Source: a virus (Duplodnaviria; Caudoviricetes). From it: a stretch of DNA of 36,055 nt. The notes under the pieces were generated by a model. It ran no database searches. It saw nothing but the letters and a program-made list of their open reading frames with translations, and had not been told where the DNA came from. Numbering within the stretch: position 1 is the first letter of the stretch; each line of letters begins with the position of its first letter. The position numbers and the translations under genes are program-made. Shown piece by piece: positions 28,408 through 30,823 of this stretch. The stretch spans positions 1 to 36,055 of IMG/VR virus record IMGVR_UViG_3300044638_005324. One strand, 5' to 3'.

Positions 28408-28668
28408 TCATTGAACATTCACGTTCCCACTTTTGAAGTAATTTCTGTAATAGATATACGTTGAATAAACATCTCTTTCCCATTCAAACAAATCCTCACT
28501 TGTGAAGTAATTTCTGTAATAGATACATGTCGAATAAACATCTTTGTTCCTCATTTGTTTCCTTACAAACGTCGAAGCAATTCTTTTGATTTGTGTATTA
28601 TCCGCATAAAAAGACTTTACAAAAACACCATTAATAAATATTACAGCATACATATATAATACCTCCAA
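28408..28668 (-). CDS. Hypothetical protein with an internal duplication
   Basis: DVYSTCIYYRNYF / DVYSTYIYYRNYF. The start is probably 28653 (GGAGGT RBS). Confidence 0.6.
   Translation of the reverse strand: MEVLYMYAVIFINGVFVKSFYADNTQIKRIASTFVRKQMRNKDVYSTCIYYRNYFTSEDLFEWERDVYSTYIYYRNYFKSGNVNVQ
28434..28543. repeat. 41-bp direct repeat x2 (69-bp period)
   Basis: 28434-28474 vs 28503-28543, with three transition differences. Confidence 0.9.
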
Positions 28669-29085: not shown

Positions 29086-29286
29086 TTAATTCACCTCCTT
29101 CATTAGGTTATTATAAACTTCTACTACTTCTTCATAGCATGTTTCAGCTATGTACTCTAAAATCTCTTCATAAGGTTCATCGGGAACCCCATCGACTATC
29201 CATTGATAATAGATGTCTTCATCACCTATATCAATAATATTGTCGTGCATCGTTACTAACATTGCTACCTTCTCTTGTACTGTCAT
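29086..29286 (-). CDS. Acidic early protein downstream of hammerhead B
   Basis: GAGGAGG RBS; IGDEDIYYQWIVDGVPDEP. Confidence 0.75.
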   Translation of the reverse strand: MTVQEKVAMLVTMHDNIIDIGDEDIYYQWIVDGVPDEPYEEILEYIAETCYEEVVEVYNNLMKEVN

Positions 29287-29309
29287 TTTAATTCCTCCTC
29301 ATAATTACT

Positions 29310-29359
29310 GACCTCGTCAGGTAGTGCTATACACTACTACGTCTCACGACGTTTCGGTC
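29310..29359 (-). ncRNA. Type II hammerhead ribozyme B
   Basis: Minus strand: GACC GAAA CGUC-GUGA-GACG UA^ GUAGUG-UAUAG-CACUAC CUGACGA GGUC. The core is complete, all three stems are Watson-Crick, and the cleavage triplet is GUA. Confidence 0.93.
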
Positions 29360-29361
29360 TA

Positions 29362-29580
29362 TTAATCTTTCCAAAACTCTTTGTATATATCACTTCTTGC
29401 CATCTCTGTATGATTACGTAAGATAACCCAGTAATCAAACAAGCTAGTTAATTGCTTACCTTGGAATCCTAATGACTCCATGTATTCGTAAATCTTTGAC
29501 ATGTTGTACTCCAATGCTTCCATGGTCATTAAGAATTCATGTTCATCCATCTTACTCAATTCTTTGCCATTGTATTTCAT
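29362..29580 (-). CDS. Hypothetical early protein (between the two ribozymes)
   Basis: MKYNGKELSKMDEHEF...; GGGGG RBS; the stop codon is 2 nt before hammerhead B. Confidence 0.7.
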   Translation of the reverse strand: MKYNGKELSKMDEHEFLMTMEALEYNMSKIYEYMESLGFQGKQLTSLFDYWVILRNHTEMARSDIYKEFWKD

Positions 29581-29582
29581 GT

Positions 29583-29792
29583 CTAATTCCCCCATTCCCA
29601 TGATTCTAGGATAGTTATGCAATCAGTGTAGAAAGAGCCTTCAGTAACTCCACAATGTCTAGCTGAGATACTACCATCTTTCTCAGCAAAGAACTGAACT
29701 TCAGCTTCCTGAAGTTCTGAATACACGGTCATAGAACCGTTTTTAATAATTGTTGCAGGATTGTATTCAATCCCAAGGTAGTAATAATTCAT
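29583..29792 (-). CDS. Hypothetical early protein downstream of hammerhead A
   Basis: GAGGAGG RBS. Confidence 0.7.
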   Translation of the reverse strand: MNYYYLGIEYNPATIIKNGSMTVYSELQEAEVQFFAEKDGSISARHCGVTEGSFYTDCITILESWEWGN

Positions 29793-29818
29793 GTCTAATT
29801 CCTCCTCTTATTACTGAT

Positions 29819-29868
29819 GTCCTCATCAGCTAGTGCTATACACTAGGACGCTTCACAGCGTTTCGGAC
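29819..29868 (-). ncRNA. Type II hammerhead ribozyme A
   Basis: Minus strand: GUCC GAAA CGCU-GUGA-AGCG UC^ CUAGUG-UAUAG-CACUAG CUGAUGA GGAC. The core is complete and the cleavage triplet is GUC. Confidence 0.93.
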
Positions 29869-29875
29869 TGTTTAG

Positions 29876-29921
29876 GTACTTACTAATTAACTAGTTAATT
29901 AACTAATTAATTAGTAAATAC
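29876..29921. repeat. 46-bp near-perfect AT-rich palindrome
   Basis: GTACTTACTAATTAACTAGTTAA|TTAACTAATTAATTAGTAAATAC, with two mismatched pairs. Confidence 0.85.
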
Positions 29922-29940
29922 TCAATGAGCATTTACTTAT

Positions 29941-29983
29941 AAAAAAAAAAAAAAAAAAGAAAAACCTTAGCTTACGCTAAGGT
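29941..29983 (-). terminator. Intrinsic terminator with a very long U tract
   Basis: ACCUUAGC-GUAA-GCUAAGGU followed by UUUUC and U18. The stop codon of the upstream gene lies in the loop. Confidence 0.85.
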
Positions 29984-30295
29984 CACTGATACAAAGTAGA
30001 ATCTTCTGTTATCTTCTCTAATAACTTGTAACAATTCCTCTTTGTTACTTACACAAACGAATCTTGCTTTGCCTTTATATCCATAGTTGAATCTAACACT
30101 CTTACCTAATTCAAAGTGCTTACCAACTTCTATAAGAGCTTCAGTATGAACACCAGCTTTAACCGTCTCAGTAGTTAGTCCTTTTACAGCTAACTTGATA
30201 GTAATAGGCTTATACTTCTCTTTAGGAGCAATAACTTTATAACCTAAATTCACTAACACTTCAATTGCTTTTTGTTCTTGAGATACTTTAGACAT
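29972..30295 (-). CDS. First early gene, basic hypothetical protein
   Basis: MSKVSQEQKAIEVLVNLGYKVIAP...; K/V-rich; the RBS is weak, so the start is uncertain (30313 possible). Confidence 0.65.
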   Translation of the reverse strand: MSKVSQEQKAIEVLVNLGYKVIAPKEKYKPITIKLAVKGLTTETVKAGVHTEALIEVGKHFELGKSVRFNYGYKGKARFVCVSNKEELLQVIREDNRRFYFVSVTLA

Positions 30296-30782: not shown

Positions 30783-30823
30783 TCATTTGAACTTAATCAT
30801 TTGAATTTAATCTTTTGAACTTA
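30783..30823. repeat. 14-bp tandem repeat x3
   Basis: TCATTTGAACTTAA TCATTTGAATTTAA TCTTTTGAACTTA. Confidence 0.8.

Follow-up and report, generated by a model that had tools for sequence, protein, structure and literature searches.

Two hammerhead motifs in a phage small-gene array

The window, meaning the whole 36,055-nucleotide stretch of DNA analysed, covers a complete virus record of 36 kb that carries direct terminal repeats and the genes of which include those for terminase, portal, DnaC-like and DnaD-like proteins. Its best terminase relatives, at 52% (unannotated) and 38% (Bacillus phage PK1), are too distant to fix the host. Two elements, called A and B, sit on the minus strand within an array of small genes that have strong Shine–Dalgarno sites. 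Of 12 proteins tested, 10 are without a Pfam match; another is GP88, and the last gave a sub-threshold match.

A and B are two complete predicted type II hammerheads, both of which carry the full consensus core (C3 U4 G5 A6 N7 G8 A9, G12 A13 A14 A15 and U16 H17, as given in the accessible part of PMC3088659). In each copy, the stem II 5′ strand is followed by GAAA, stem III, the cut-site triplet (GUC in A, GUA in B), stem I, CUGANGA and the stem II 3′ strand. Loops close both stem I and stem III, stem II is open, and neither copy has a mispair adjacent to the core. Stem III comprises 4 bp plus A15.1–U16.1, stem I 6–7 bp (17 nt) and stem II 4 bp, where position numbers outside the core follow what we take to be the usual hammerhead numbering.

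Hammerhead A, up to A9, occupies 29823–29869 of the minus strand. An A (29869) precedes the stem II 5′ strand GUCC (29868–29865), GAAA (29864–29861), stem III with a GUGA loop (29860–29849) and GUC, with the predicted cut between 29847 and 29846; stem I (29846–29830, with U1.7 at 29840), core CUGAUGA (29829–29823) and the stem II 3′ strand GGAC (29819–29822) complete the element. An A-rich linker (29792–29813) carries the Shine–Dalgarno sequence GAGGAGG (29807–29801) and leads to an AUG at 29792, which opens a 69-amino-acid ORF (29583–29792). A 72-amino-acid ORF (29362–29580) comes next, and its stop codon (29364–29362) ends 2 nt ahead of stem II of ribozyme B.

Hammerhead B, up to A9, spans 29314–29360 on the same strand, with an A at 29360, the stem II 5′ strand GACC (29359–29356), GAAA (29355–29352), stem III (29351–29340), GUA, with the predicted cut between 29338 and 29337, stem I (29337–29321, with U1.7 at 29331) and core CUGACGA (29320–29314). 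The stem II 3′ strand GGUC plus AG (29308–29313) is followed by a linker (29286–29307) with GAGGAGG at 29300–29294, and an AUG at 29286 begins a 66-amino-acid ORF (29086–29286). All three ORFs lack a PHROG or Pfam match and have no assigned function. The predicted cuts would release a 509-nt piece carrying two ORFs.

The minus-strand region upstream of A (29876–29984) holds a terminator-like hairpin with a long T run (29984–29963) and then, between this site and the ribozyme, a 46-bp AT-rich, near-perfect palindrome (29921–29876, arms 92% complementary). No promoter consensus was called between the terminator-like hairpin and the palindrome. The palindrome could be an operator or promoter region, in which case the role of ribozyme A may be to trim a transcript at its 5′ end and not to separate genes. 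Elsewhere, a 54-nt direct repeat (28428–28550, 87% identity, spacing 69) lies inside an ORF of 80–86 amino acids (28408–28668). Three 13-nt direct repeats with 14-nt spacing (30783–30823), possibly origin or regulator sites, are located in the long stretch of non-coding DNA that separates the small-gene array from terminase.

Exact and close pattern scans recovered identical ribozymes in only three further contigs. Ribozyme A has no match beyond 22–23 chance bases in an annotated cultured-phage collection, and four prokaryote genomes yielded one extra candidate match. An antisense hammerhead was also considered and rejected, as the other strand of both copies lacks A9 or GAAA in place.

A predicted second hairpin that excludes the active fold

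The original prediction described, just 3′ of each core, bases complementary to the catalytic core itself, and sequence and fold prediction place an anti-core hairpin there in both copies. Copy A has CUGAUG-AGGA-CAUCAG (29829–29814, minus strand), in which the tail AUCAG (29814–29818), the complement of CUGAU, contributes to a 6-bp hairpin that includes G8–C10.4, and the stem II 3′ strand becomes the loop and closing pair. Copy B has CUGAC-GAG-GUCAG (29320–29308, minus strand), a 5-bp hairpin whose anti-core GUCAG is contained within the stem II 3′ strand and the following AG. Both hairpins draw on bases from the 3′ strand of stem II and are mutually exclusive with that stem. Each hairpin ends 21 nt ahead of the AUG served by GAGGAGG. 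The probability that an anti-core 5-mer lies near both cores in the window by chance is roughly 10⁻⁴, and in both copies the anti-core hairpin is part of the predicted minimum-energy fold of the precursor and of the 3′ product.

Two further claims hold only in part. The UAA after the hairpin is present in both copies but fails as a family feature, occurring in 11 of 160 tails among the matches listed. The complement was also said to track the C/U difference between the two cores. Taken by itself, the A/B pair does not amount to a clean compensatory change, as its partner positions are non-homologous: C7 of B pairs with G10.2 inside stem II, and the partner of U7 in A lies outside stem II. Tracking is borne out instead by covariation in other phages, in which the arrangement in A is the commonest register and that in B an overlapping register.

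Relation to known hammerheads

Perreault et al. in 2011 (PMC3088659; RF02276) described type II hammerheads of prophages and phages that cluster around genes, are active in vitro and have a pseudoknot between loop I and the tail; the accessible text suggests processing of long transcripts and leaves their function open, and PMC10085705, in the available part, continues to treat the purpose of these clusters as unknown. A and B share the topology, the core and the occurrence of several copies flanking single genes or short blocks. However, the tail of the published consensus pairs with loop I, whereas that of A and B pairs with the core, and both copies lack the complement for a loop I pseudoknot of at least 4 bp with the tail behind stem II. 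Neither copy matches RF02276 even at an E value of 10; homologues score 24–45 bits against this model, with 7 of 24 matches listed above its cut-off. The RAGATH-17 RNA model (RF03095) gives 19.4 bits against a cut-off of 102.3, which is chance level, with only the first hairpin and AU-rich bases aligning.

Hammerheads activated by a single U1.7–A trans-Hoogsteen pair provide a second comparison (PMC9217987, in the part available). Both copies likewise have a U seven bases past the cut and an A 5′ of the stem II strand, but this A lies in the open 5′ flank of a type II stem II rather than in a GUGA loop. These bases suggest that A and B form a U1.7–A contact of stem I with stem II. We take such a contact to be of the sTRSV type.

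Viroid RNAs adopt alternative folds that compete with their ribozymes, and the insulator RiboJ carries an added downstream hairpin. A natural flank also inhibits the HDV ribozyme (cited in the accessible text of PMC3553993). The phage tail resembles these natural sequences in pairing with part of a ribozyme and competing with its fold; those of HDV and viroids are long-range and tied to replication of circular RNA genomes, whereas the phage element is a local core–tail hairpin in an mRNA. Engineered counterparts are the TRAP hammerhead with its 3′ attenuator (Burke et al. 2002, as described in PMC9576606) and cis-blocked hammerheads (PMC3553993), which, in the portions available, share with the phage element a cis strand complementary to the core that competes with the active fold; in A and B, as in TRAP, this strand lies on the 3′ side. 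Their blockers are longer and opened by oligonucleotides, whereas the phage tail is natural, forms 5–7 bp and has no known activator. RiboJ-type insulators (PMC12857756, available part) also cut and then present a hairpin and an exposed ribosome-binding site as a standard mRNA leader, although they are engineered and their hairpin is a separate element rather than being built from the core itself.

We found no description of a natural anti-core tail in the openly accessible literature. A core-complementary tail is not mentioned in the accessible main text of PMC3088659, and four tail strings are absent from its readable supplements, with 300 of the 1018 pages of Dataset S1 covered, none of them from the type II alignment (pages 982–998).

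Covariation of the tail with the core

Homologues were collected by scanning contigs from viruses, metagenomes and genomes for sequence patterns, which yielded at least 773 loci, at least 721 descriptor hits and at least 469 distinct type II hammerheads. A stricter stem filter removed 10, leaving at least 459, of which at least 382 came from scans without the tail in the pattern. Several scans were stratified by N7 or stem II, and frequencies are therefore best read from the least filtered sample alone, the pattern of which required Y7 and U1.7.

Homologues do carry the complementarity: of the 122 matches listed in the least filtered phage sample, 41 have the tail and 81 lack it, and four control windows further downstream in the same sample contain it in 1, 2, 0 and 0 of 122. 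Two starting points account for most occurrences of its UCAG: the one used by B, 2 nt inside stem II, and the one used by A, directly after stem II plus one base. In the tail-blind set, among the matches listed, the tail accompanies C7 in 53 of 126 cases, U7 in 42 of 172, A7 in 1 of 59 and G7 in 0 of 25. For one stem I length, we estimate that roughly 350 stored stretches hold such variants. The scans also revealed a large IMG/VR class (L009–L903; an estimated 2200 or so stored stretches) of type II hammerheads with a 17-nt stem I, 4-bp stem II, U1.7 and flanking A, mostly below the Rfam RF02276 cut-off. Six loci (L025, L048, L062, L068, L089 and L090), mostly tail-less, have, just upstream of stem II, a CUGAC, CUGAU or CUGAG that resembles a second partial core.

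The original proposal that the complement looks maintained is supported by covariation between N7 and its partner. Where the partner lies outside stem II, tail-blind samples contain 34 C–G, 25 U–A, 1 U·G, 1 C·A and 4 other combinations among the matches listed (n = 65, P = 7 × 10⁻¹⁵), and the whole strict set contains 54 C–G, 60 U–A, 6 U·G, 1 C·A, 2 A–U and 6 others among the matches listed (n = 129). Among disjoint nearest-neighbour pairs of C7 and U7 ribozymes, 21 of 27 matches listed exchange C–G for U–A, and 3 more are accommodated by wobble pairing. In the B register, AG follows GGUC in 30 of 36 cases, whereas it follows GACC in 5 of 69 and GUCC in 6 of 64, although it also follows GGCC in 22 of 64, among the matches listed.

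The 40–50 nt of variable stems preclude a reliable tree, and descent was controlled only roughly, by grouping those ribozymes whose flanks are similar or whose loci are shared, which gave 303 families. When one ribozyme was drawn from each family in 200 draws, the largest P value for covariation was 2 × 10⁻¹⁷. Both forms are present within only 2 of the 303 families, and the covariation spans about 90 flank-unrelated families.

An independent scan for core and tail only, with the hammerhead left out of the pattern, gave at least 117 distinct hits. Among the matches listed, 77 of 117 lie inside full hammerheads and none of these is mismatched (69 U–A, 7 C–G and 1 U·G); the 33 of 117 without stem I have mixed partners (12 and 10 Watson–Crick, 6 U·G and 5 C·A), and a further 7 of 117 have the hairpin without a full descriptor match.

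These data bear on whether the complementarity has any function in RNA, or instead reflects a palindrome in the DNA or a mutation, produced by template switching, that a few lineages have inherited. The sequences share descent to an uncertain degree, the asymmetry of G·U over C·A at N7 is small (6 versus 1 among the matches listed) and near-miss tails have no clear wobble excess, all of which would fit such an origin. However, spacing varies, covariation extends across the flank-unrelated families, and 2 A7 cores among the matches listed have a U partner. Template switching should also extend the repeat into stem I, yet such pairing is depleted, as described below. We thus regard the absence of an RNA-level function as extremely unlikely. 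Sequence comparison confirms that the tail complementarity is not due to chance and that pairing is kept by matching base changes across phages; on this comparative evidence, A and B carry a selected second fold that excludes the active fold on a known type of ribozyme.

Sharp boundaries and retained ribozyme features

The anti-core helix is 5–7 bp long and ends at C3. The base after UCAG is able to pair with position 2.1 in only 5 of 160 cases among the matches listed, versus 29.8 expected, and with one ribozyme per family in 4–5 of 120 versus about 22.5. The next base pairs with 2.2 in 31 of 160 cases versus 49.6 expected among the matches listed. Off-register and tail-less controls gave no such avoidance. 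If the tail could pair with 2.1, the precursor would probably be little affected, but the product would lose the pairing of its first base, and the avoidance of such pairing is, in our reading of the sequences, the best hint of a role in the product state.

A start codon could be assigned for 317 of 459 hammerheads among the matches listed. The median distance from hairpin end to AUG is 22 nt in all three registers, equal to the median from stem II to AUG in tail-less Y7 ribozymes among the matches listed. Hairpins closer than 15 nt to the AUG number 0 of 100, against 31 of 217 stem II ends of tail-less ribozymes, among the matches listed. This spacing floor implies that the hairpin is present during translation and is kept clear of the ribosome, and would apply equally to cut and uncut RNA.

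Tail carriers retain the fast GUC site in 149 of 158 cases, and both U1.7 and the A before stem II in 159 of 160, among the matches listed. When these bases were left out of the pattern, U1.7 and the A were found in 184 and 189 of 210 homologues among the matches listed, and ribozymes lacking the U1.7–A bases had the tail in 0 of 22 matches listed from samples blind to both tail and U1.7. The retention of U1.7–A by carriers places the tail in a subclass whose 3′ flank is free of the published pseudoknot. It also indicates, together with the retained GUC and the presence of the 5′ half in nearly all motif hits that bear stem I, that the ribozyme is still under selection.

The sharp boundaries of the hairpin and its flush stacking on stem I could also be explained if the two-hairpin fold were recognised by some protein or nuclease of the host or phage, with exclusion of the core being incidental. 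We consider this very unlikely, since the loop varies in size (3–10 nt) and sequence, and since intact hammerheads account for 77 of 84 motif hits with an upstream hairpin, whereas only 1–2 look decayed with the tail kept, among the matches listed. One locus (L775, minus strand, match 301–316) resembles a decayed hammerhead, with GAAA displaced from stem III and stem I and the anti-core tail kept.

Proposed action after cleavage

We give an even chance to a model in which the tail works mainly after the predicted cut, as a product lock that creates a two-hairpin, 5′-sealed leader. The ribozyme, judging from the consensus, would fold with its 4-bp stem II and the U1.7–A tertiary contact and cut at GUC or GUA; the tail would compete and may slow cutting but not switch it off. 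Once cut, the products would be held together by stem II only, and the tail would displace it, making the cut one-way and dismantling the half-core. The predicted 3′ product has stem I, with its first base paired, stacked directly on the anti-core hairpin, followed in both copies by about 21 bases predicted to be unstructured, including the Shine–Dalgarno sequence. Each gene block in the array would thereby gain a standard 5′-sealed leader. We count in favour of this model that an engineered 12-nt blocker halted only about 44% of cleavage until it was reinforced (PMC3553993, available part). Against it, about two thirds of relatives are tail-less, and a 4-bp junction should separate unaided.

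The suggestion that refolding yields a two-hairpin leader with an open ribosome-binding site is consistent with the end of the helix at C3, the intact stem I and the distance of at least 15 nt from hairpin to AUG, but the predicted gain in opening is small. When the tail is barred from pairing, the predicted cost of opening the site rises by a mean of 0.65 kcal/mol (n = 99) and by more than 1 kcal/mol in 29 of 99 cases; the rise is not seen in copy A, in which the predicted energies are reversed (4.1 versus 3.7 kcal/mol).

A block on circularisation gained no support. Among the matches listed, the stem II strands are mutually compatible in 83 of 115 neighbouring ribozyme pairs, a raw count without a null, and the intervening piece could then circularise; the A–B pair has an A·A mismatch in this arrangement. 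The originally suggested block on re-ligation would predict tails where neighbours could circularise, but no link was found between the tail and circularisation-compatible neighbours (19 of 28 versus 64 of 87 among the matches listed, P = 0.63).

Competition before cleavage

By nearest-neighbour energies, the hairpin in the precursor is predicted to be more stable than stem II by about 2.5 kcal/mol in the A register, which is the commonest, and nearly level with it in the B register; in copy A the predicted preference is 2.2 kcal/mol. Some effect before cutting is thus expected, with slowing being likely. The native fold of copy A is predicted at 3%, rising to 42% with 2 kcal/mol of extra stabilisation and to 79% with 3 kcal/mol. 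The energy model cannot settle this balance because it lacks the non-standard pairs of the core, the tertiary contact, Mg2+ and coaxial stacking. A seemingly stronger, compensating stem II in tail carriers (P = 2 × 10⁻⁵) vanished once base 10.4 was matched (P = 0.72), and, among the matches listed, ribozymes of the commonest register and tail-less ones cannot be told apart by flank GC.

The tail could instead be an attenuator that acts before the cut by keeping most precursor inactive, such that cutting by a fast ribozyme becomes slow, partial or conditional. A ribosome, a protein, Mg2+ or temperature might shift the balance, and different registers might set different cleavage fractions along the array. 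We see this as a real possibility, held with appreciably less than even confidence. It accords with the predicted presence of the hairpin in the lowest-energy precursor fold, with a predicted median stem II pairing of 0.02 in the commonest register versus 0.53 in tail-less Y7 ribozymes among the matches listed, and with register strengths that differ (about −0.3 versus −2.5 kcal/mol), A and B being one of each. The layout also matches that of the TRAP hammerhead, whose 3′ attenuator sequesters the core (in the available part of the review PMC9576606). However, the exclusion of the hairpin from the initiation region and the limit of 5–7 bp on the helix count against attenuation, we saw no effector-binding element, and strict avoidance of pairing with 2.1 seems hard to reconcile with tuning of the precursor.

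Terminating ribosomes might open the hairpin, as upstream stop codons often lie within 10 nt of stem II; this is the case for 257 of 451 related phage hammerheads among the matches listed. A ribosome terminating there would cover the 5′ half of the ribozyme, tail or no tail. Such proximity is independent of the tail (77 of 158 carriers versus 180 of 293 tail-less ribozymes among the matches listed), and copy A has no upstream ORF near stem II.

A kinetic version of competition was part of the original prediction, which envisaged a short co-transcriptional window in which the ribozyme can cut only once stem II has emerged and until the tail follows, with latecomers staying uncut. In stepwise folding of A, predicted stem II pairing is about 0.4 until the tail is complete and 0.02 thereafter, as this idea would require, but the tail is complete only 5 nt after stem II in A and 2 nt in B, and B has no such window in the modelled folding. 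At usual elongation rates, transcription of 2–5 nt takes a fraction of a second. Short hairpins should also re-open within seconds, and one of 5–6 bp should exchange rather than lock. The rate reported for a natural type II hammerhead is a lower bound of 1.2 per min (PMC3088659, available part). We regard a kinetic window as highly improbable. Taken jointly, all readings other than a product lock and leader or an attenuator and switch are unlikely.

Implications

Cleavage-linked translation is described for eukaryotic RNA viruses (PMC13725137, available part). For this class of phage hammerheads we can propose, tentatively and with considerable doubt, that about a third are natural two-state ribozymes, in which an attenuator sets the cut fraction of an early polycistronic message copy by copy, shifted by translation or a phage factor, and the tail serves as a brake before cleavage and a lock after it.

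A selected fold that excludes the active fold means that the RNA has a second functional state. The tail provides a five-base handle, rescuable by compensatory changes, with which regulated ribozymes could be told from leader-making insulators, and hundreds of natural variants with graded strengths may be useful parts for synthetic insulators or switches.
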